Positions 9,149 to 19,800 of a stretch of 64,000 bases of DNA are shown here, one piece after another. The stretch is from Candidatus Eiseniibacteriota bacterium (GTDB taxonomy: Bacteria > Eisenbacteria > RBG-16-71-46). Position 1 is the stretch's first letter, and the number at the start of each line of letters is the position of its first letter. Below the pieces are notes generated by a model that saw only the letters and a program-made list of their open reading frames with translations, ran no database searches and was not told the origin of the DNA. Where the stretch lies: NCBI GenBank assembly GCA_963717505.1, contig OY970342.1, positions 298,791 to 362,790 of the forward strand, written 5' to 3'. The translations under genes and the position numbers were made by a program.

Positions 9149-10507
9149 ATGCGCCTGCCCAACCTGCTCGCGACGCGCAAAGGTCGTCTCGCTGCGTTCT
9201 TCGCGCTCTACCTGACCGAGGGTATCCCACTCGGCTTCACCGCGACCGCGATCGCCACCCAGATGCGCCGGCAGGGCCTGGGGCCGGCCGAGATCGGCGC
9301 CTTCGTCGGCTCGCTCTATCTGCCGTGGGCCATGAAGTGGGCGGTCGGGCCGTTCGTCGACGTCTTCTCGTCGGAGCGCTTCGGCCGGCGCCGGCTGTGG
9401 ATCCTGCTCATGCAGTTCGCGATGGTCGGGTCGTTGATGGCGACGCTGCCGGTCAACTTCACCACCGAGCTCAAGCTGTTCACGCTGCTCATCCTGATCC
9501 ACAACGCGTTCGGAGCGACGCAGGACGTGGCGATCGACGCGCTCGCGGTCAACTCGTTGCACGAGAACGAGCGCGGACTCGCGAACGGACTGATGTTCGG
9601 CGGCGCCTACCTGGGTCAGGCGATCGGCGGCGCCGGTGTTCTGTTCCTGACGCCCTACGTCGGCTTCCAGAACACCTATTGGTTCGTGGCCGCGTGGATC
9701 CTGGCGGTCACGTTCTTCGTAGCGCTGCCGATGCGCGAAGCGGCGAGCCCTCCCCAACCGCCGCGAACCAAGGGCGCGCTGGTCACGGCGATGCTCCAGG
9801 TCTGGCAGTTCATGAAGGACACGTTCATCGCCTTCGTCGGGCAGCGCGGCGCCCTGCTCGGCCTGCTGCTCGCTCTGCTACCGGCCGGGGCTTATGCCCT
9901 CGGACTCGCGCTCCAGTCCAACCTCGCGGTCGAGCTGGGCCTGGACGACACCCGGGTTGGGGCGCTCAACTTGTGGTCGACCGTGATCTCGGCGATTGGC
10001 TGCGTGGTCGGCGGCTGGCTGTCGGATCGCTTCGGCCGGCGCCGCACACTCGCGCTCTACTTGATTGGCACAGCGATTCCCACGGCCTACCTCGCCTGGG
10101 TCATGCAGCAAGTGGGGTGGATCATGCCGATCGATCCCCAGGCGGCCAATCGCCCGGTGCCACCCGAGGCATTGGTCGGCACGTTCTGGGCGATGGTGCT
10201 CGTCTACTCCGTGTTCCAGGGGCTGATGTACGGCACGCGCTCCGCGTTGTTCATGGACGTGACCACGCCCAAGGTCGCGGCCACCCAGTTCACCGCGTAC
10301 ATGGCGCTGCTCAACTTCGCGATCGCCTACTCGGCGCGCTGGCAGGGCCTGGCGGTCGAGCGGTGGGGCTACCCGATCACGTTGCTGCTCGATTCGGTCG
10401 CCGGAATCGTGTGTATCGCCGTGTTGCCGTTCATGGGTCGGCTGACCACACGCGATTCGCGCACGGTGCCGGTCGGAAGTGCAGTGCCCGAAGCGATCGG
10501 GCCGTGA
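9149..10507 (+). CDS. MFS transporter, AmpG/PAT-family-like permease
   Basis: 452 aa and ~12 TM segments. N-terminal LYLTEGIPLGF motif typical of AmpG/acetyl-CoA-transporter-like MFS proteins. ATG at 9149. Confidence 0.8.
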   Translation: MRLPNLLATRKGRLAAFFALYLTEGIPLGFTATAIATQMRRQGLGPAEIGAFVGSLYLPWAMKWAVGPFVDVFSSERFGRRRLWILLMQFAMVGSLMATLPVNFTTELKLFTLLILIHNAFGATQDVAIDALAVNSLHENERGLANGLMFGGAYLGQAIGGAGVLFLTPYVGFQNTYWFVAAWILAVTFFVALPMREAASPPQPPRTKGALVTAMLQVWQFMKDTFIAFVGQRGALLGLLLALLPAGAYALGLALQSNLAVELGLDDTRVGALNLWSTVISAIGCVVGGWLSDRFGRRRTLALYLIGTAIPTAYLAWVMQQVGWIMPIDPQAANRPVPPEALVGTFWAMVLVYSVFQGLMYGTRSALFMDVTTPKVAATQFTAYMALLNFAIAYSARWQGLAVERWGYPITLLLDSVAGIVCIAVLPFMGRLTTRDSRTVPVGSAVPEAIGP

Positions 10508-12261
10508 AGCTGGCGTCGCCAGCCCTGAGCACATTGGCGCGCCGGTGTTGGATGGCGACGTTGGCGCTGGCCGCACCGGCGTTGGCGGCCGATCGATCGC
10601 CCAACTTCCTCAACATCAACCCCGCCTGGTCGCCCGACGGCACGCGTATCGCGTTCGAATCGCGCCGCGACGGGCAGGCCGAGATCTACGTCATGAACGC
10701 CGATGGCTCGGGGCAATGTCGTCTGACCTGGACGCCGGCCGACGACACGCATCCCTCGTGGTCGCCCGACGGTCGCCGCATCGTGTTCGACTCGAATCGC
10801 GACGGCGTCTGGAACCTCTACGTGTTCGACCCCGACGGCACGAACATCCGGCGGATCACCCACCAAGGAACCGCCACCGGCGAGGAGTTCGGACGCCATC
10901 CGTCGTGGTCGCCCGATGGCCGACACATCGCGTTCGACTCCGATCGCAACGGCAACCACGAGATCTACGTTTGCGAGCCGGACGGCTCGGACCCGGTGCG
11001 GGTGACGCGCGATCCGGGGTCGGACAACCACGCGTCGTGGTTTCCCGACGGCAGCCTGGTGTTCAACTCGAACCGCAGCGGCGACCAGGAGATCTACCGC
11101 GTCGGCGTTGATGGTTCGCGCCTCACACGTCTGACCACGAGCCCGGGCGACGATGCCGGCGCCAAGGTCTCCCCCGACGGACAGCGCATCGGCTTCTTCT
11201 CGGCGCGCACCGGTGGCCAGACCGACCTCTACGTGATGAACGCCGACGGCTCGGCACCGGTTCCGCTGGTCCCCGGGCCCGACACGGTCTACGAGCTGAG
11301 CTGGTCGCCCGATGGCAAGCAGATCGCGTTCTACTCCGACCGCGACCAGCGCTTCGAGATCTTTGTGATGAATGCGGTGATGGACGCCGAAGCCCGTGCG
11401 ATCACGAACTCCGGCTTCGACAGCGTGTGGCCGGCCTGGTCGCCCGACGGCGAGTATCTGACGTTCTGCTCGAACCGCACCGGCGACATGGAAGTGTGGA
11501 CCATGCGCCCCGACGGCTCGAGCGCCGAACGTTTGACCCACACGCCCGGGCGCGACGCTCACCCGGCGTGGTCGCCCGACGGCAAGCGCATCGCCTTCCA
11601 GTCGCCCCGCGACTTCGCCGTGCCGGAGCAGGTCGAGCTGTACGTGATGAACGCCGACGGCACGAGTCAGACGCGACTCACTCGGCTGCCGGGCTTCACC
11701 GGGGTTCCCGCGTGGTCGCCCGACGGCATGCGCATCGCGTTCCAGTCGCACGACGCCAAGCTCGACCGCTGGCGGATCTGCGTGATGAACGCTGACGGCA
11801 CAGGCATAGGGACGATCACTCCGGGCCGGGCCAACGACCAGGTGCCGCACTGGTCGCCCGACGGGCGGCGGCTGCTCTTCTTCTCGGACCGTGCGGGCAA
11901 GAATCAGCTGTTCGTCATGGACTCGAGCGGCGCCAACGTGCGACCGTTGACCCGAGATACCACCGAGGCCTTCGCGGGTTCCTGGTCGCCCGAGGGCTCC
12001 CGGGTCGCGTTCATCTCGGGTCGCGGAGACTCGACCGAAGTCTTTATCATGAACGCCGACGGCACCGGCCGCGTGCCCCTGACTTCGGGGGCCCGCGCTA
12101 CGGGGCAGCCGGCGTGGTCGCCCGACGGGAAGCGGTTGGCATTCCACTCGGCGGCCGCCGGCCGGAACGACATCATCATCATGCATGCCGACGGCTCGGA
12201 GTCGGTGCGGATCACGCGCGGCGCCGAAGGCTGGCGTCACTGGAGTCCGGCAGCACCCTGA
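10504..12261 (+). CDS. TolB-like periplasmic protein made of ~13 PD40 (WD40-like) beta-propeller repeats
   Basis: GTG 10504 overlaps the MFS stop (GTGA); the alternative start is ATG 10552. Signal peptide, then iterated …WSPDG(R/K)xIAF.S.R.G…EIY… units. Confidence 0.8.
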   Translation: MKLASPALSTLARRCWMATLALAAPALAADRSPNFLNINPAWSPDGTRIAFESRRDGQAEIYVMNADGSGQCRLTWTPADDTHPSWSPDGRRIVFDSNRDGVWNLYVFDPDGTNIRRITHQGTATGEEFGRHPSWSPDGRHIAFDSDRNGNHEIYVCEPDGSDPVRVTRDPGSDNHASWFPDGSLVFNSNRSGDQEIYRVGVDGSRLTRLTTSPGDDAGAKVSPDGQRIGFFSARTGGQTDLYVMNADGSAPVPLVPGPDTVYELSWSPDGKQIAFYSDRDQRFEIFVMNAVMDAEARAITNSGFDSVWPAWSPDGEYLTFCSNRTGDMEVWTMRPDGSSAERLTHTPGRDAHPAWSPDGKRIAFQSPRDFAVPEQVELYVMNADGTSQTRLTRLPGFTGVPAWSPDGMRIAFQSHDAKLDRWRICVMNADGTGIGTITPGRANDQVPHWSPDGRRLLFFSDRAGKNQLFVMDSSGANVRPLTRDTTEAFAGSWSPEGSRVAFISGRGDSTEVFIMNADGTGRVPLTSGARATGQPAWSPDGKRLAFHSAAAGRNDIIIMHADGSESVRITRGAEGWRHWSPAAP

Positions 12262-12291: not shown

Positions 12292-12531
12292 ATGGAATTC
12301 TTGCTTGCCCCGATCGTGGCGGTGATCGTCGTAGCCGCCATCTCCTGGTTCGCAGTGACCCTTCACCGCCGGACGCGACTGCAGGCGCCCCAACGCCAGC
12401 TCGAGCGCATGGTGGGCCCCGAAGCGGCGGAACGGCTGACCCGCTTCGAACGCGAGCGCGACCCGAACCTGCCGGCGGCTGAGGCGGCGCGCCGAGCGCT
12501 CGAGCGCGCGGAGTACGACCGGGGTCGCTGA
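12292..12531 (+). CDS. Small membrane-anchored protein (one N-terminal TM helix, charged coiled C-terminus); hypothetical
   Basis: GGAAGAGGAG RBS upstream of ATG 12292. MEFLLAPIVAVIVVAAISWFAVTL TM segment. Confidence 0.5.
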   Translation: MEFLLAPIVAVIVVAAISWFAVTLHRRTRLQAPQRQLERMVGPEAAERLTRFERERDPNLPAAEAARRALERAEYDRGR

Positions 12532-12761
12532 ACGCAGCTCGGCGCGCGAGGGCGCCGGGCAACCTCAGTAGTGTCCCTGAGGTGAGTCGCTACGCGAAGC
12601 CATTCGGCAGCAACAGGATCAGTCCGTAGATGATTTTCTTGTTGACCCGTTCCAGTGGCGGCGTATTGTCGGCTGTGCTCTAGCAGTTCCCCTTCCGCCG
12701 GAGATTCCCCCGCGTCAACCATGGACCGGGAAGGTCTATCGGGCCGCGCAGGGAGAATCCC

Positions 12762-14972
12762 ATGTCGAATCCAGTGTTGTCCCGCGTTGACTTGTTCATC
12801 ACCAGGGACAAGTCCGCAGCCGATCGATCGCAGATCCCGCTCCCCAGTGCTCGGGTCGAGTTCTACGGTCAGGGAGCGACAGTGGCGGACGATGTCACCG
12901 TTCCGGGTTCCGGTTCGGAAGATGTCGACGTCTACGATCCCGGCGATCTCGAAGTCGGAAGCACACTTCGAGCGAACGGTTCGGGACCCGAACTCACCGT
13001 CACGGCCATTACGACAGTACCTGCGTTTCCGGGGGTAACGCAGGTCACCCTCTCCAACGGCGGAGCCTCGGACCTCGATCTGACCACGGGAATGCGTCTG
13101 ATCATTACCTCCAACCGGCCGACGCTCTACAGCGATCCGCTTGGGACGGTCGACCTCGGCAACCCATACGTAACCGCCGACAACGACAGTCGAGTCCTCG
13201 CCTACATCAATCGTCGTCGGTACGACTACACGATTCCCGGCAAGGTCTACGCTCAGGTGACCTCGAACGGCACCTTGGCGGGTGGGAACGTGCTGTCGTG
13301 GAACCACAACGACACCAACATCACGGCTCCCAACCGAATGGTCCTGGTCGGAATTTCGTGGCAGGGCTCGGTCGGCGGTGAGACCATCGACTCCGTCACG
13401 TACGGTGGAGTCGCTATGTCGTTGGTGGGCCAAACTAGCCTGACATCGGTCTACAAGCTTGCGAACCCACCGACCGGGCTGCAGACGGTGGTCGCGAACT
13501 TTGGAGCGTCGTCGCCGCCGGCGGTAGTTTACGCCGTCGGAGGAGCGGTCACCTATTCCGGCGTAGACGCCCTCTTGCCACTCGGCTCGGCATCAACGGC
13601 AACCGGGACCTCGACGGCACCCAGCGTTGGTGTCGGGACGACGTACGCAGATGGCCTAGTGTTCGACACAATGAGCGCGGGTGGCACCACCACGGCCAGC
13701 GCCGGCAGCGGGCAGACGCCGCAATGGAATCAAGCCTCGGGTGGAATCACCGTCCGCGGATGCGGCTCCCTGGAAGACGGAACGGGCTCCTCGGTGACCA
13801 TGAGCTGGACGTTGGGCACGAGCCGACCCTGGGGGATCCTGGGCGTAGGGCTCAAACCTGCGCTGCGAATTCATGTCGACGCGTTGGGAGGCACCCAGCG
13901 GTCACCATCATGGCTCAACGCGAGGGATTTCGAGAGCATTCAAGTCGCGATCGACACCCTCCCGCCAGCAGGCGGAGTTGTCTACATCCCAGGCGGCGAG
14001 TACGAAGTCTTCGGCGAGGTTGACACCGTTCCAGGCCTCTTGATTCCGCCGGGGAAGGCAGTACATCTGCTGGGCGATGGGGCGGATCGAACGATCATCT
14101 TCTGCAGCGACAAGAACGTCGACGTGATCTGGGTCCAGGGCTCCTACTCGACAATCGAGAACCTCACAATCCGTGGCGTTCCGGAAGTGCCAGATGGGGC
14201 GACGGAGGAGATTCGGAGGCGAAGAGGACGCGGGATCGTCGTGGGTCAGGTCGGTGGGGCGGCCGAAGTAATGCGCCGGATCTCCATTCTCGGCTGCCGC
14301 ATCATCGACACCGCAAGTTGGTGCCTCTTCTTCTTGGACGAGGACGAACCGAATGGAGAGGCGGAGAAGACCCTGACGATTTGGGTCCACGTCGAGCGAT
14401 GCGAGTTTCGCAATAACATTGTCGCCGGCGTACTGGGCCTTGGCAAAGGCTGCTTTCAGCACCTCTACGTAAGTTGTGGGTGGGAGTTCTTCAGAGGCTT
14501 CGCGGTGAGCGCCATAGGAGCCGAGGGAGTTACATTCCAGACCTGCACACTCGAGGATCGGCGAAGCGTGCCTGAGACGGTTATTGCGCCAGAGGACGAG
14601 TTTCCATATGTCGCATTCGATGGATGCAAGAATATTCGCGTCTTGTGCTGCTGGTTCGAGTCACATGCGACCAGCGCGGGTGACAACGAACACGACACCA
14701 AGTGGAGGTTCATCAACGTCGGCCCGACGTTAGCGTGTGAGGACGTGACAGTGGATAGTTGCCGGTTCGTCAGGCACGCAGGCAACTTTCCTAGGCTCAT
14801 GAAGGTCAAGAACGCTTCCAAGGCCATCTCTCTGATCAACCCAACCTGCACACTCCTTGATACTTTGACGACAATAGGTTCACATCAACAGACCCTAATG
14901 ACCTCGATGTCGTGGCAGAGGAAGGTAGCGAAGGCGAGATCGGGAGCGAGGTCTACCTCTCCGGAGGCATAG
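12762..14972 (+). CDS. Phage tailspike / pectate-lyase-fold (right-handed parallel beta-helix) protein, no signal peptide
   Basis: RBS AGGGAGA upstream of ATG 12762. Central region …GGVVYIPGGEYEVFGEVDTVPGLLIPPGKAVHLLGDGADRTIIFCSDKNVDVIWVQGSYSTIENLTIRG… is typical of beta-helix depolymerases and tail fibers. The C-terminal 30-40 aa look non-native (possible frameshift into the next ORF). Confidence 0.65.
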   Translation: MSNPVLSRVDLFITRDKSAADRSQIPLPSARVEFYGQGATVADDVTVPGSGSEDVDVYDPGDLEVGSTLRANGSGPELTVTAITTVPAFPGVTQVTLSNGGASDLDLTTGMRLIITSNRPTLYSDPLGTVDLGNPYVTADNDSRVLAYINRRRYDYTIPGKVYAQVTSNGTLAGGNVLSWNHNDTNITAPNRMVLVGISWQGSVGGETIDSVTYGGVAMSLVGQTSLTSVYKLANPPTGLQTVVANFGASSPPAVVYAVGGAVTYSGVDALLPLGSASTATGTSTAPSVGVGTTYADGLVFDTMSAGGTTTASAGSGQTPQWNQASGGITVRGCGSLEDGTGSSVTMSWTLGTSRPWGILGVGLKPALRIHVDALGGTQRSPSWLNARDFESIQVAIDTLPPAGGVVYIPGGEYEVFGEVDTVPGLLIPPGKAVHLLGDGADRTIIFCSDKNVDVIWVQGSYSTIENLTIRGVPEVPDGATEEIRRRRGRGIVVGQVGGAAEVMRRISILGCRIIDTASWCLFFLDEDEPNGEAEKTLTIWVHVERCEFRNNIVAGVLGLGKGCFQHLYVSCGWEFFRGFAVSAIGAEGVTFQTCTLEDRRSVPETVIAPEDEFPYVAFDGCKNIRVLCCWFESHATSAGDNEHDTKWRFINVGPTLACEDVTVDSCRFVRHAGNFPRLMKVKNASKAISLINPTCTLLDTLTTIGSHQQTLMTSMSWQRKVAKARSGARSTSPEA

Positions 14973-15526
14973 CTCACGCAGCGTCTGGAGAGATCAATTC
15001 CGTTGCCCTCTTCCTACCGAGCGTGAAGGGTCTCTCCATCTTCGCGTCGGGCCCCAGGGTAACGCCGCCTAGCGTGTCATCGGACGATCGGGACAGTACC
15101 CAAAGCCTGGCTCTAGACGCGAAGCAGGGAGACATGATTTTCAACACCACGACCGACCGTCCGGAGGTCCGCATCGGTGCCAGCTGGCAGCAGATTCCAA
15201 GTCGAGCAGCGTCGGCGGAGTTTGTGGACGACACCAGCATGTCGACTCCAGAAGACCTAATTTCGGATGGAGTTGCCGGTTTCTACCGGATCTCAGTGTA
15301 CCTCGAGAAAGTGACAAGCGGCGCCGGCACTGTTCAGGCCGATGTAACGTGGACCGACGACGCAACGCAACGCACTCGTTCAGTGTCGGTGACCGACTCG
15401 GGGGCGAACGTGCTCGCCAGCGACGAATTCCCGATCTACCTCGCCGCTGGCGAGTCCATCGCATACCAGATTCTGACCCCCCAGAGTCATCAGGCGAGGG
15501 TACGATTGCAGGTAGAGGTAGCATAG
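14912..15526 (+). CDS. Hypothetical acidic protein; may be the frameshifted C-terminal continuation of the tailspike-like gene
   Basis: The frame is open from 14861 and overlaps the previous ORF by ~110 nt. GTG start at 14912. No recognised domain. Confidence 0.4.
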   Translation: MAEEGSEGEIGSEVYLSGGIAHAASGEINSVALFLPSVKGLSIFASGPRVTPPSVSSDDRDSTQSLALDAKQGDMIFNTTTDRPEVRIGASWQQIPSRAASAEFVDDTSMSTPEDLISDGVAGFYRISVYLEKVTSGAGTVQADVTWTDDATQRTRSVSVTDSGANVLASDEFPIYLAAGESIAYQILTPQSHQARVRLQVEVA

Positions 15527-15528
15527 CA

Positions 15529-16926
15529 ATGAATTCTCCTTGGGGCTGTGGTCTGTTCCGTCATACGAGCTTGGCCATGGCCCTGGGGGTCACATGTCTT
15601 GTGCGTCCGGTGGCCGCCCAGCTGACGTTTGATTCACCTCTTCGGTATCCTGCGAACGACGCTTATGTTGTTACCTTCCTTCATTTCGACGGCGACCAAG
15701 CGCTCGATCTAGCAGTTCTTCAGGACGGTGAGGGTACTTTCGACGACTCTCTACTGGTCTTCTTGAACGACCGGGCAGGCAGCTTCGTCGCCGGCCCGGC
15801 GTTTCCCTGTAGCGCAGGCGTCGGGCGCATTGCGGCTGCTGACCTAGACCATGAAGGGCAGGATGATCTCGTAGTTACGTGCGTCTATGGAGATGTGATG
15901 GTCTTCTTGAACAAGCCATCCGGCATCATGGTGACCACTTACCAGGTGCTCTCGAATCCAGGCTACGTCGATGTCGTCGACATCGATCATGATAGTGACA
16001 TGGACTTGGCGATTGCCATCAATGGGTCGAACGGCATTCAATTGCTGACGAACAGTGGCAACGGCCAGTTTACATTTGGTCAACGACTAACTGGGATAGG
16101 GGTAATTGGTCAGATTGATTCTGCAGACTTCAACGAAGATGGCCACGTCGACATCGTTGTCGGCGTCGAAAATTCATCACGGTTAAACATCCTCTACGGG
16201 GATGGCGCGGGCAACTTCACACGAACGTGGTTCTCTTGGAACCCGCAATTTGCAGTGGCATCGGCGGACTTCGATGATGACGGCCATGCAGATATTGCCG
16301 CACGGGATGGGTCCCTGCGGTTCTTCTGGGGTGATGGTCAGGGTGGGTTCAGCGGGCCGACGTCAGTGTCGACTTTTGGGGCCGGGCTGTTGACGGTTGA
16401 CGATTGGAATCGGGATGGCCTTCCGGACTTAGCCGTGTCGTCCTACCTGAACCAATCGTACCAGACGTTTGTTGAGAATTTGGGCGCCCGCGGCTTTTCT
16501 GCCCAACCCTACGACCTTGGTGGCTTCGGCACTGCGAGACTCGCGTCTGGAGATGTCGATGGGGATGGCTGGCCGGATCTTGCGGGAGGCAGCAAGTCCG
16601 CTTCGATCGTGTCGGTTCTTCGGAATGCCAATGCCCCAGCTACAGGGGTAGAGAGGTCACCACCAGCGGTCCGTCTGACCATCGCTCCGAATCCCGCGCA
16701 GCGTAGATTCACCGCGGCGTTCGATCTGTCCGGAGCAGCCACCGCGACCCTGGAGCTCTGGGACGTGCAGGGTAGACGCCTGGACCGGCGTGACGTCGGC
16801 TCGTTCGGTCCCGGCCGCCACCAGATTGCATTCGGGAACAGCCGCCGACTGGCGCCTGGGATCTATCTCGTCCGACTGATCCAGGGAGATCGAGTGACCA
16901 CCGCACGCGCCTGCCTGATTGAGTAG
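15529..16926 (+). CDS. Secreted FG-GAP/VCBS-repeat (integrin-alpha-like beta-propeller) protein with T9SS-type C-terminal sorting domain
   Basis: ATG 15529 lies 2 nt after the previous stop. Signal peptide MNSPWGCGLFRHTSLAMALGVTCLVRPVAAQ. Repeated …D.D.DG..D…G-x-G-x-F motifs. C-terminus …APNPAQRRFTAAFDLSGAATATLELWDVQGRRL…APGIYLVRLIQGDRVTTARACLIE matches the CTD shared by five other genes here. Confidence 0.8.
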   Translation: MNSPWGCGLFRHTSLAMALGVTCLVRPVAAQLTFDSPLRYPANDAYVVTFLHFDGDQALDLAVLQDGEGTFDDSLLVFLNDRAGSFVAGPAFPCSAGVGRIAAADLDHEGQDDLVVTCVYGDVMVFLNKPSGIMVTTYQVLSNPGYVDVVDIDHDSDMDLAIAINGSNGIQLLTNSGNGQFTFGQRLTGIGVIGQIDSADFNEDGHVDIVVGVENSSRLNILYGDGAGNFTRTWFSWNPQFAVASADFDDDGHADIAARDGSLRFFWGDGQGGFSGPTSVSTFGAGLLTVDDWNRDGLPDLAVSSYLNQSYQTFVENLGARGFSAQPYDLGGFGTARLASGDVDGDGWPDLAGGSKSASIVSVLRNANAPATGVERSPPAVRLTIAPNPAQRRFTAAFDLSGAATATLELWDVQGRRLDRRDVGSFGPGRHQIAFGNSRRLAPGIYLVRLIQGDRVTTARACLIE

Positions 16927-17031
16927 CAGACTAACAGCGGCCCGAGCGCCTGCCCGGCGAAGTTGCCGGCTACCAGCCGCTGGTCGCACGCCTCGGAAGG
17001 CCTCGAGCGGGTGCTTCGGTAGCGTTCAGAA

Positions 17032-19800
17032 TCACGGCACGAACGCGACACGCGCGGTCGCAGACTCGGCGCCCTGCGACACGCGCAGCCAGTAGATTCC
17101 CGGGCGCTCCGGGCGGTCGCGCAGCGTCACCACGTGACTCCCGGCGCCGAGTGAGCCGACGTTTTCGGTGGCGATCCGCCGCCCGGTGACGTCGTAGAGC
17201 GAGATCGTCGCCTGCCCATCGCCCGGAAGCGTGAACGAGACTCGGATCTCTTCTCGCGCTGGGTTCGGCAGAACCATGTGGATCGTGATCCCGTTGGCGG
17301 CGGCCGACGTCCCGCCTCCCACCGCCGGACCGCTCACCCGCACTGTCATGCCTTCCGACGGCACGCCCTGGTCGTCGACCACGAACAGCATGTAGTGGCC
17401 CGGCAGGCAGCGGGCGGAGTCGACCGGCACGGCGACGTTGAGCCCGCCCGGCACCAGGGTGAACTCGACCGGCACGATGCGTTGGTTGGCGTCCCACGCG
17501 TGGGTCACTGAGCCGTGGCGCATGAGGCGAACCGCGGTGATGTTGGCGGGATCGTGGACTTGGACGTGGAACGTCTCGCCAAACCTTACTGCTGCCGGCG
17601 CCGCGTGGATCATGGGTCGCGTCCCGCGAAACAGGTAAGGCGGCGAGAACAACTCGGCATCGCGACGGTTCAGGTGGCCGCGCGGCGACGGCGCGCCGCC
17701 GCCGGCGCTCATCACGCGCCCGTCGGGAAGCAGCAGCGCAAGCGAATGGTAGAGCCGGGGCACGGTCATCGATGAGAGGGTCGTCCAGCTCCCGGTCGCG
17801 GGGTTCAGCAGCTCGGCGGCGAGCACGGCGCCGACCGGGTTGTTGCTTCCGAGACCGCTGGTGCCGCCGGTCGCGAGCACAGTGCCGTCGGGCAGAAGCG
17901 TCGTGTTTAGGTGCCGGCGCGGATAGGCCATGGGCGCACCGGCGATCCACTGCAGAGCGGGATCGTCGAGATCGATCCCCTCGGTGGATGCGGTCGGCGT
18001 GATGGTCGGCGGAACGGCGGTGTCGTAGGAGCTGCCACCGATCACCAGGATCTTCCCGTGCTCGAACATCACGGACGAGCCGTACTCGCGATACCCGAAG
18101 CTCGTGGCCGTTGGGTTCGTCCACGCGCCGGTGCCGCGAGGATCGAGGTACCACGATTCCCCCTGCCAGCCGGCACAGAAGACGCTGTCCTCCCCGATCA
18201 CATACATCCACGGGTAATAGCGCCAGAGCAGCGGTTCACCGAGCCGCGCGTCGGTCAGATCGCGCCAGGCGTGCGCTCGCACGTCCCAGACCTGCGGCAA
18301 GTCGTTCATGAGGGTCTGTGAGATCGACCCCGCGGTCACCAATAGATCGCCGTTCGGCAGGACGGTGTTGGTCGGATACCAGCGGCCGCCGTTCATGTCG
18401 GGCAGGTGTTCCCACGTGTTGGTCACCGGATCGTAGAACGCGGCGTTCGGCAGGCCCTCGGCCTCGGCGATGTGCCCGCCAGTGACGAACACGCGGCCGT
18501 CGGCGGCCAGCGTGTGGCCCGAACAGAAGAGATCGAAGCCGGCCTGGGCGATGCCGTGGACCATGCCGCCCATCGGATCCCAGCGGACCGGATGGTCGCC
18601 GCCGTTGCCGCCGATGTGCTGTTCCTCGCCCGGCCACATCATGACTTCGCCGCTCGGCAGCAGCGTTGCGTGGATCGCGACGATGGGCAGGCACACGGGA
18701 TCGCTCCAGTGGCCGAGCGCCCGCGCCTGCTCGTCGTCGACGATCGTCACCAACGCTTCCGCCGGTCCGGCGATCGCAACCGGGCCGCCCACATCGAGCA
18801 ACTGGACGCTGAACGCGTCGTCGCCTTCGGTGACGGCGTCGTCGTGGATCGGAATCGGTACGACCTTGGCGGTCTCTCCGGGACCGAATGCGATGAGCGT
18901 CGAGGTTGTGTCGTAGTCGGCCAGAGTCGCGGACCCGGGCGTGGTTCTGACGCGCACCTGAACCGAGCTCTGCAGACCGCCGACGCGATCAATCCGGACC
19001 CCCGCGGCGCCGTCGGTCTCGACCGGCGAGTACTTGGCCGCGGAGAAGCTCAGCACGCTGGTCAGCGAATCGACGAACTGAACCCGCACGTTGTCGAGAT
19101 CGTGAAGTGCCGTCTGGCCGCCCGAGCGTGCCATGAAGTGGACGCGCGACTCGTAGGGCGCGAGCCCGGGAACGGCGAAGCGATCGACCACGGTGATCGG
19201 CGGTCCGCTGCATGGCGTCAGGATCACCGTGACGTCGGGCGGGTTGTGCGCCGGCCGGGCAATCACGCGCGCGTGGTTGAAGTAGCCATTCGCGAGGTCG
19301 ATCTCATGCGACAGGTCGAACTCCGCGAGCTTGGTGGTGTTCCAGTGAACCGAGACGTGGTCGGCGCTGATTTCCCCCGCGCCCTGATTGATGTCGAAGC
19401 CGATGCCCAGCGAGGCGTCGAGGTCGGCCTCCTCGGACTCGCCGCCGATCGCGCCGGTAGTGTCGAACAGTGCCGTGCTCGCCAAGGTGAAGCCAAAGCC
19501 GTCGGCGCGGCTGACCGCCGACTGCGGCGTCATGCGGAAGTCGAAGTCGGCGACGATGACGTCGTGCGCCCCGGGGTCACTCAAATCGAACGCGATCGAG
19601 TTGACGTTGGCGAGCGTGGTGTCGGCGAGGCGCAGGAAGTTGCCGCTCGGCCCGGCGAGGCACCCCGGCGCGGGCGGAACGCCGAACGATCCAAACGTGA
19701 AGGGCGTTCCAGGCGTGTCGCAGTCGTGCACGGTGGCCGCGCCGGCGGGCGATCGCCACGCCAGAGCGATGAGTGCGGCCAGGATCAACCGGTGACGCAT
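17032..19800 (-). CDS. Secreted multidomain protein: L-type lectin-like domain + Calx-beta + galactose/glyoxal-oxidase-like Kelch beta-propeller + DUF1929/E-set domain + T9SS C-terminal sorting domain
   Basis: Start at ATG 19800 (MRHRLILAALIALAWRSPAGAA signal). Lectin-like …ADGFGFTL… region. Calx-beta-like …KVVPIPIHDDAVTEGDDAFSVQLL…. Kelch propeller with GAOX-type C-terminal domain (…FSPPYLFRGTRP…AVRLMRHGSVTHAWDANQRIVPVEF…LPGHYMLFVVDDQGVPSEG…). CTD …LPNPAREEIRVSFTLPGDGQATISLYDVTGRRI…GIYWLRV…. Confidence 0.8.
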   Translation of the reverse strand: MRHRLILAALIALAWRSPAGAATVHDCDTPGTPFTFGSFGVPPAPGCLAGPSGNFLRLADTTLANVNSIAFDLSDPGAHDVIVADFDFRMTPQSAVSRADGFGFTLASTALFDTTGAIGGESEEADLDASLGIGFDINQGAGEISADHVSVHWNTTKLAEFDLSHEIDLANGYFNHARVIARPAHNPPDVTVILTPCSGPPITVVDRFAVPGLAPYESRVHFMARSGGQTALHDLDNVRVQFVDSLTSVLSFSAAKYSPVETDGAAGVRIDRVGGLQSSVQVRVRTTPGSATLADYDTTSTLIAFGPGETAKVVPIPIHDDAVTEGDDAFSVQLLDVGGPVAIAGPAEALVTIVDDEQARALGHWSDPVCLPIVAIHATLLPSGEVMMWPGEEQHIGGNGGDHPVRWDPMGGMVHGIAQAGFDLFCSGHTLAADGRVFVTGGHIAEAEGLPNAAFYDPVTNTWEHLPDMNGGRWYPTNTVLPNGDLLVTAGSISQTLMNDLPQVWDVRAHAWRDLTDARLGEPLLWRYYPWMYVIGEDSVFCAGWQGESWYLDPRGTGAWTNPTATSFGYREYGSSVMFEHGKILVIGGSSYDTAVPPTITPTASTEGIDLDDPALQWIAGAPMAYPRRHLNTTLLPDGTVLATGGTSGLGSNNPVGAVLAAELLNPATGSWTTLSSMTVPRLYHSLALLLPDGRVMSAGGGAPSPRGHLNRRDAELFSPPYLFRGTRPMIHAAPAAVRFGETFHVQVHDPANITAVRLMRHGSVTHAWDANQRIVPVEFTLVPGGLNVAVPVDSARCLPGHYMLFVVDDQGVPSEGMTVRVSGPAVGGGTSAAANGITIHMVLPNPAREEIRVSFTLPGDGQATISLYDVTGRRIATENVGSLGAGSHVVTLRDRPERPGIYWLRVSQGAESATARVAFVP

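Follow-up and report, generated by a model that had tools for sequence, protein, structure and literature searches.

Phage tailspikes and lateral fibers, such as the tailspikes of HK620, CBA120 (TSP2) and Det7 and the lateral fiber of SU10-like phages, join an anchor-type N-terminal domain to a right-handed beta-helix and a distal knob, and carry no signal peptide. The same arrangement is predicted for the product of a broken spike gene found in the window, which is the whole 64-kb stretch of Candidatus Eiseniibacteriota DNA that was analyzed. There the gene shares an islet of low GC content (12550-16950) with a single partner encoding an exported beta-propeller. We favor, with moderate confidence, the reading that the islet is a compact, horizontally exchanged module of spike and exported surface propeller, in which the spike gene has been broken in two, and not the edge of a decayed prophage, as an earlier note on this DNA had allowed.

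Four phage contigs have homologs of the window spike among their structural genes, as expected of tailspikes. Unlike tailspike genes, however, the window copy and most sampled relatives are chromosomal, have no other phage gene beside them and are paired with a gene for an exported propeller, and the window spike had no sequence match to any cultured phage among 50,697 records. By analogy with tailspikes, the proteins of this family may be trimeric and enzymatically active.

The nearest known cellular analogue is the family of MAT fibers of Bdellovibrio, which PMC10769870 describes as having several paralogs per genome, an N-terminal domain that is conserved and rich in beta structure, shafts formed by beta-helix and tips that can be exchanged, TNF-like ones among them, and which it defines by a signal peptide and, after it, a beta-rich domain that is conserved and spans about 130 amino acids (aa). 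The window family likewise has several tailspike-like paralogs per genome, and the MAT tip Bd2734 is among the Foldseek matches of its modeled knob; the two N-terminal domains are likened by description only. The window spike falls outside the MAT family as defined there, since it has neither a signal peptide nor room for one. Further differences are that the S74 domain was not found in the window family and that a propeller partner is not described for MAT fibers in the available text (PMC10769870).

The best sequence-profile and structural matches of the window beta-helix are AlgE4/AlgE6 and Vibrio RbmB, which lack the N-terminal domain and the knob of the window spike, whereas the spike lacks the AlgE motif DPH. 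The AlgE and RbmB enzymes are secreted. The partner gene resembles type A cargo of the type IX secretion system (T9SS) with FG-GAP/VCBS propellers in having a signal peptide, FG-GAP repeats and a TIGR04183 match over cut-off, but its fixed place immediately behind a spike gene of phage type, with 17 nucleotides (nt) of overlap at the paralogous and L008 loci, is not known for such cargo.

The split spike gene and its exported partner

We refer to the 736-aa open reading frame (ORF) starting at 12762 as A, to the ORF at 14912-15526 as B, and to the gene at 15529-16926 as C; L numbers (L001, L006, L007 and so on) denote other contigs or loci, and P numbers (P0002, P0004 and so on) homologous proteins. 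A homolog search with A returned six full-length relatives, two of them on the query's own 4.16-Mb contig. Both of these paralogs, P0002 (879 aa, 50% identical) and P0004 (878 aa, 38% identical), are intact, bringing the spike copies in the window's genome to three, and both continue at the C-terminus for about 200 aa beyond what A contains, an extension that aligns with B. When P0002 was searched against the window by tblastn, residues 1-670 mapped to the frame of A at 12762-14843, and residues 669-877 mapped to the frame of B at 14837-15517 (E 6e-19). The homology of A stops in the alignment at NPTCTLLDTL. The frame of B has a stop codon at 14858-60 and from 14867 reads DDNRFTSTDPNDLDVV, which matches TLDNDRFISTDP of the L007 homolog and likewise the paralogs. 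The L007 homolog reads TLSETLDNDRFISTDP within one frame across the position of the window's break, and therefore the window has lost one base in ACT TT(G) GAC GAC at 14865-14868. The repaired product is 921 aa long, and its alignment to L007 and to the paralogs holds at every codon.

As judged from these sequence comparisons, A and its companion ORF are one gene of about 921 codons, split by a 1-nt deletion, and the islet contains exactly two genes, the three gene calls being corrected to two. The earlier note had taken A, an acidic companion ORF and C for three independent ORFs; B is indeed acidic (isoelectric point 4.3), yet it is the frameshifted C-terminal domain of the beta-helix gene and not a gene in its own right. 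The largest product that the window copy can give is the knob-less 736-aa protein, and B is the stranded knob-coding part. The features of the islet are collected in Table 1.

Table 1. Features of the low-GC islet, in window coordinates
Feature	Position	Strand	Evidence
Promoter-like site TTGACC-16-TATTGT, 5' of the spike gene where GC begins dropping	12642..12669	+	Consensus scan
Spike gene, reading frame before the break (aa 1-702 out of 921 in the repaired protein)	12762..14867	+	Alignments A1/A2, phrog_553, beta-helix evidence, profile search, tblastn of paralogs
N-terminal domain, aa 1-155	12762-13226	+	Profile search
Inserted beta domain, aa ~157-363	13230-13850	+	Profile search; phrog_553 match
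Right-handed beta-helix, aa ~380-700	13899-14861	+	Profile search, family-level Pfam, PDB profiles, Foldseek
Frameshift site, one base lost from ...ACT TT(G) GAC GAC..., reading shifts to -1 frame	14865..14870	+	Frame comparison with L007 and paralogs
Linker with motifs SEVYLSGG, GPRxTPP and GDMIFNT...W, start of the displaced C-terminal domain	14867..	+	Alignment A6
Displaced C-terminal domain, 219 codons plus stop, includes ORF 14912-15526	14867..15526	+	tblastn, alignment A6, AlphaFold2, Foldseek
Out-of-frame tail of the 736-aa ORF, 34 codons without homology, then TAG	14868..14972	+	Translation and alignment
Predicted TNF/C1q-like jelly-roll knob	about 15194-15523	+	AlphaFold2 model, Foldseek
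Partner gene C, 465 aa, FG-GAP beta-propeller	15529..16926	+	FG-GAP_3, FG-GAP, gene call
Sec-type signal peptide of C, predicted cleavage after VAA	15529-15618	+	Inspection, N-terminal hydrophobicity
T9SS type A C-terminal sorting domain of C, aa 385-458	16681-16902	+	TIGR04183

The deletion is probably real, because a separate Logan assembly of run ERR12036786 repeats the same 736 + 204 split and because the other long genes of the window are unbroken. It is unlikely that the gene is intact in the organism and that the frameshift is an error of the assembly consensus. An error would suit a break that consists of a single missing base and is followed by a fully open, conserved frame of 219 codons, and in L007, which comes from a different assembly, there is likewise a 1-nt deletion close by; the window's site, however, is not a homopolymer. 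A second frameshift, suspected in the PD40 gene as a sign of poor assembly, was rejected, as that locus consists of two real genes. Of the 34 residues upstream of the break that are conserved in the family, A has kept 33, and the frame downstream keeps all of its motifs; therefore the break is recent, or parts of the gene are still in use. We infer that the paralog in the window was disabled or truncated recently; the function presumably lies with the two other copies of the genome, which are intact.

The start of C is 15529, and not 15349, according to the gene call. The protein matches FG-GAP_3 (PF13517; E 6e-34) over six stretches and FG-GAP (PF01839; E 1.7e-15), and thus has the repeated blades of an FG-GAP beta-propeller. 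It scores 24.2 bits with TIGR04183, against a cut-off of 23, and 17.6 bits with PF18962, under the threshold of 27. The signal peptide and the TIGR04183 match together place C among the type A cargo of the T9SS, in agreement with the earlier note. The product of the neighboring GlxA-like gene reaches 35 bits with TIGR04183, which suggests that a T9SS is in use in the host.

Composition, phage relatives and the recurring pair

The GC content of 12550-16950 is 0.597, as compared to 0.672 ± 0.010 in 508 other segments of 4.4 kb (minimum 0.650; z = -7.4), and the lowest value for 500 nt is 0.536, at 15750-16249. The islet is the sole extended GC dip of the 64 kb and also the deepest, which bears out the drop over about 4.4 kb noticed before. 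GC content at third codon positions (GC3) is 0.72 in A, 0.68 in B and 0.63 in C, versus 0.84-0.90 in the flanking genes. The low-GC stretch begins at about 12,560, past ORF 12292-12531, and ends with the stop codon of C at 16926. None of the marks of a prophage or integrative island (integrase or recombinase, att repeats, tRNA target, phage genes) was found. Neither an integrase nor any other phage gene, structural genes included, lies within 10 kb on either side of the islet, as had been noticed earlier, and there is no tRNA gene in the 64 kb. The search for att-like direct repeats at the islet borders (12.5 and 16.9 kb), which the earlier note had envisaged, gave none that was convincing.

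Relatives of the spike do occur in phages, although the first viral scan, made with alignment A1, had no match. On L010, an IMG/VR contig of 47 kb, a 567-aa protein matches the family profile over its full length, with E values of 8e-39 for the N-terminal domain and 3.5e-49 for the beta-helix and C-terminal motif. Its gene lies downstream of the terminase, portal and major head genes, between a gene for a protein of ~240 aa and a conserved gene for one of ~805 aa. The gene order is the same on L016 and L017, and on the more distant L012 a protein with the N-terminal domain is encoded directly after the equivalent ~250-aa gene. This protein of L012 (9437-12166) starts with a signal-peptide-like hydrophobic stretch, MRVASTAILSALLLAPAAWA, which may be a mis-called start or a genuine difference.

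The portals of these contigs belong to the SU10 portal family, and distant relatives carry the SU10 major capsid protein family and a weak SU10 adaptor match. In SU10 the adaptor supplies the docking sites of the long tail fibers, and the fiber gp12 is numbered right after the adaptor gp11 (PMC9509320). By analogy of gene position, the family member may be the laterally docked spike of L010-type phages. Its relatives on L010, L012, L016 and L017 would then be virion proteins, a status for which gene position argues in these four contigs only and not at the phage-gene-free window locus. The shared N-terminal domain and beta-helix in these structural blocks sustain the earlier view of A as an orphan tailspike.

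Together with L063 and L064, these contigs represent an uncultivated group of podophages with SU10-type portals and without a close cultured relative. The L010 spike, like A, had no tblastn match in the cultured phage records, and the best cultured match of the L010 portal, from a Microcystis phage, was only 20%. A portal-profile search found 58 relatives, all on contigs of at most 47 kb and none on the 4.16-Mb contig; the phages are therefore probably virulent. The longest portal-bearing contigs of the group measure 40-47 kb, and these phages encode a protein of ~460 aa with a glycosyltransferase-like PHROG match, its gene standing after that of the major head protein and before the ~240-aa gene that precedes the spike.

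In bacterial chromosomes the spike adjoins a gene for an exported protein at 9/9 informative loci, a count that leaves out P0003, whose contigs end at the gene, and P0002, whose next gene is cut short; no phage neighbors were present at any chromosomal locus examined. A gene with FG-GAP repeats and a T9SS sorting domain is located 3' of the spike in the window, at P0004, at P0006 (L008) and at L007, and the 17-nt overlap was seen after P0004 and after P0006. NHL propellers with signal peptides adjoin the spikes of L001, L006, L061 and L062, those of L001 and L006 being 63% identical, and the partner at L009 is an exported protein of 232 aa. The pairing thus returns in further bacteria and, in the window's genome, at one more locus at least. 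P0024, the L007 ortholog of C, is 51% identical to C, and the window and L007 spikes are 55-57% identical; the pair was therefore inherited together. At every chromosomal locus the spike and its partner are 5-9 GC points under their flanks, which fits an often-exchanged module, and on L010 and L016 the spike gene is GC-poor relative to its own phage genome.

A scan of a genome collection with the alignment as query returned one locus, L001, and with a single protein as query no match, and a metagenome scan added nothing new. PADLOC matched A, B, C and P0002 to no defense model; the NHL partners gave weak PD-T4-6 matches, most likely through shared repeats. The partners at L001 (6279-7274), L006 (1208-2221), L061 (5721-6695) and L009 (2064-2762) carry at their very C-terminus the motif [ST]WG[QR][IL]K..YR, which looks like a sorting signal; no NCBIfam model matched this WGxIKxxYR motif, and a literature search found nothing relevant. 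At the P0003 locus (the 3' ends of L002, L003, L004 and L005), four separate assemblies all break within 17 nt past the spike stop codon, suggesting repeated or strain-variable DNA downstream of the spike.

It is quite unlikely that the islet is what is left of a prophage, or of another integrated element, in decay and serves no function now. Low GC, a frameshifted spike gene and a kinship to phage proteins are what such a remnant might show. However, no integrase, att repeat, tRNA or further phage gene was found; the pairing recurs at unrelated chromosomal loci and, in the window's genome, with intact paralogs; the portal relatives that were found are not integrated; and A and B keep their conserved residues apart from the single indel. 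The idea of a degraded prophage edge is likewise not borne out, given an islet of only two genes and the lack of a portal copy on the 4.16-Mb contig.

The genes around the islet are ordinary chromosomal ones, encoding a major facilitator superfamily (MFS) transporter, a PD40 protein, a GlxA-like copper oxidase, aconitase, a type II secretion system-type ATPase, an HtrA-type protease and a kinase. The PD40 gene reported earlier on the left is there, from about 10510, but it is not the single long gene supposed. From 9149 to 12261, GC3 shows coding in frame 2 to about 10,400 and in frame 1 from about 10,450, and the long "PD40" ORF (9325-12261) is an over-extension across an MFS transporter gene (9149-10507) and a PD40 gene whose product has its own signal-peptide-like N-terminus. 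In the gap between the PD40 gene and the islet, the GC-rich ORF 12292-12531 (79 aa), called in the Logan assembly as well, has one predicted membrane helix and a charged tail. The consensus scan found two promoter-like sites where 1.0 was expected, which makes the site 5' of the spike weak evidence. A 29-nt imperfect inverted repeat (76% complementary) at 16793-16821 / 17134-17162 arises because similar T9SS sorting domains close both of the convergent genes, C and that of the GlxA-like oxidase.

Domains and predicted fold of the spike

A profile search of 1.84 billion representatives gave 12,002 matches at E ≤ 0.001, of which 319 were at E ≤ 1e-30, and resolved the protein into an N-terminal domain (profile positions 1-154), a central domain (157-363) and the beta-helix (363-789). 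Numerous relatives, 560-620 aa long, are made up of N-terminal domain plus beta-helix. The phrog_553 family, annotated as a minor tail protein, matches spike residues 127-368 (E 3e-20). The central domain (aa 157-363) is found as well, at times in several copies, in giant proteins that reach 5,721 aa; in the AlphaFold2 model its predicted local distance difference test (pLDDT) score is below 50 over aa 264-383.

The right-handed parallel beta-helix, which places the protein with the beta-helix receptor-binding proteins, had been proposed in the earlier note and is upheld at the level of the family. PF12708 matches 5/6 members and PF13229 4/6, whereas the 736-aa protein alone reaches 14.2 bits with PF12708, under the Pfam threshold of 27. 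Among PDB profiles, AlgE4 matched at 4.9e-6 and the pectin-lyase-like 7chu at 1.4e-5. The AlphaFold2 model of the spike has a mean pLDDT of 60, rising to 70-85 in the beta-helix. Foldseek ranks AlgE4/AlgE6, RbmB and an alginate epimerase/lyase highest for this model and the tailspikes of HK620, CBA120 and Det7 next, and many phage tail proteins in BFVD match it as well. The AlgE match is local and of 12-15% identity. The A-module of AlgE has the catalytic motif YG(F/I)DPH(D/E); DPH, and with it this mark of a mannuronan C5-epimerase, occurs nowhere in the repaired protein. The conserved acidic residues E598 and E633 (CWFE motif), picked from the sequence, are candidates for a glycan-related activity.

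For the knob, modeled from the displaced frame, pLDDT is 70-83 over the C-terminal 110 residues (aa 110-219). Foldseek matched this model to C1q, the TNF family, the tail-needle knobs of Sf6 and HS1, PRD1 P5, the lambda tail tip complex and Bdellovibrio Bd2734, and a sequence search of the PDB with the profile of the C-terminal domain gave no significant match. The absence of a signal peptide from the spike, also noticed before, is confirmed: only 26 in-frame codons, none of them hydrophobic, separate the upstream stop from the ATG, so a corrected start gives none, and in the alignment the N-terminus coincides with that of all homologs, the phage one included.

We regard it as very unlikely that the two genes are an ordinary cellular pair for polysaccharide remodeling, namely a beta-helix lyase or epimerase with a matrix-binding propeller, and that they have no functional link to phages. 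Vibrio RbmB and propeller matrix proteins are a comparable cellular pair, and the best structural matches of the spike, the exported propeller at its side and the chromosomal locus would all accord with one. The spike, however, has neither a signal peptide nor an alternative start, its N-terminal domain and architecture are common to a gene of phage structural modules, its predicted knob resembles those at the tips of virus fibers, and the AlgE catalytic motif is absent.

Linker breaks and the possible role of the module

The L007 spike gene, from another sample, has its own 1-nt deletion into the -1 frame, at GAT CCG GCC (L007 1547-1553), 27-30 nt downstream of the window's site and in the same linker, and its knob frame of 205 codons is open. 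A programmed -1 ribosomal frameshift yielding a short 736-aa and a long 921-aa spike, to which the shared frame, the shared linker and the open downstream frames might point, was rejected as extremely improbable because no X_XXY_YYZ slippery heptamer is present at either place, no stimulatory RNA structure follows the sites (z +0.46, no better than shuffled sequence, in the window; z -1.42, unremarkable, in L007) and P0002, P0004, P0006 and P0144 are continuous, and the two sites are moreover not homologous positions. The breaks read instead as two independent knob truncations, tolerated or even favored in the linker.

Starting from the observed gene structure, homologies, frameshift, composition, recurrent pairing and absence of prophage hallmarks, we would picture the spike and propeller module as follows. 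Gene 1 (12762-15526) is a homolog of the presumed virion spike or fiber of uncultivated podophages with SU10-type portals, built in order from an N-terminal domain of ~155 aa, an inserted beta domain, a right-handed beta-helix, a linker and a TNF/C1q-like distal knob. In the phages the N-terminal domain is presumably the part that docks to the tail, and the beta-helix would be of the glycan-binding or glycan-cleaving kind represented by AlgE4, RbmB and tailspikes. The one-base deletion in the linker puts the knob of the window copy out of frame. Gene 2 (15529-16926) would be exported by Sec, and its type A sorting domain would imply hand-over to type IX secretion and display at the cell surface as an FG-GAP propeller. 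The intact spike would act as a trimer on a surface or matrix polysaccharide, jointly with the surface propeller, which could offer it a docking site or itself bind the same glycan. The module would have come to the chromosome by gene exchange with phages and not by decay of a prophage.

Several points weigh against this picture. The frameshift could be an assembly consensus error, and, with the 219-codon frame downstream open, either the break is very recent or the frame is still used. The fold of the knob is only moderately supported, because both AlphaFold2 models rest on 4-6 sequences and average a pLDDT of about 60. In sequence terms, the window protein stays under the Pfam thresholds, shows no trace of the AlgE DPH motif and has no catalytic residues identified. 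The more distant L063 and L064, which have SU10-type portals, lack the N-terminal domain. The signal-less spike has no known route to the surface propeller, and a joint role of the pair is putative. The transfer may have gone in either direction, and most sampled members of the family are chromosomal.

More tentatively, and with the odds against it, the spike and propeller may constitute an undescribed cellular system made from a phage receptor-binding protein, serving as a surface fiber or as a virion decoy. As a surface fiber, the phage-type spike would dock on the T9SS-anchored (or WGxIKxxYR-tagged) propeller. As a decoy, the host spike, having kept the tail-docking N-terminal domain of the phage, would be built into infecting SU10-like virions and misdirect them. 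In either form, diversification of specificity would account for the presence of three paralogs per genome and for the breaks in the linker of the knob.

Chromosomal tailspike-like genes are usually dismissed as prophage debris, yet here one small module, free of other phage genes, is met repeatedly across several uncultured bacteria. The result connects likely hosts with an uncultivated podophage group whose portals are of SU10 type. It also raises the question of how and why a signal-less spike of phage type couples to an exported surface propeller. If the pairing is functional, cells would reuse phage receptor-binding proteins in a manner comparable to the MAT fibers of Bdellovibrio, with a different logic of anchoring.

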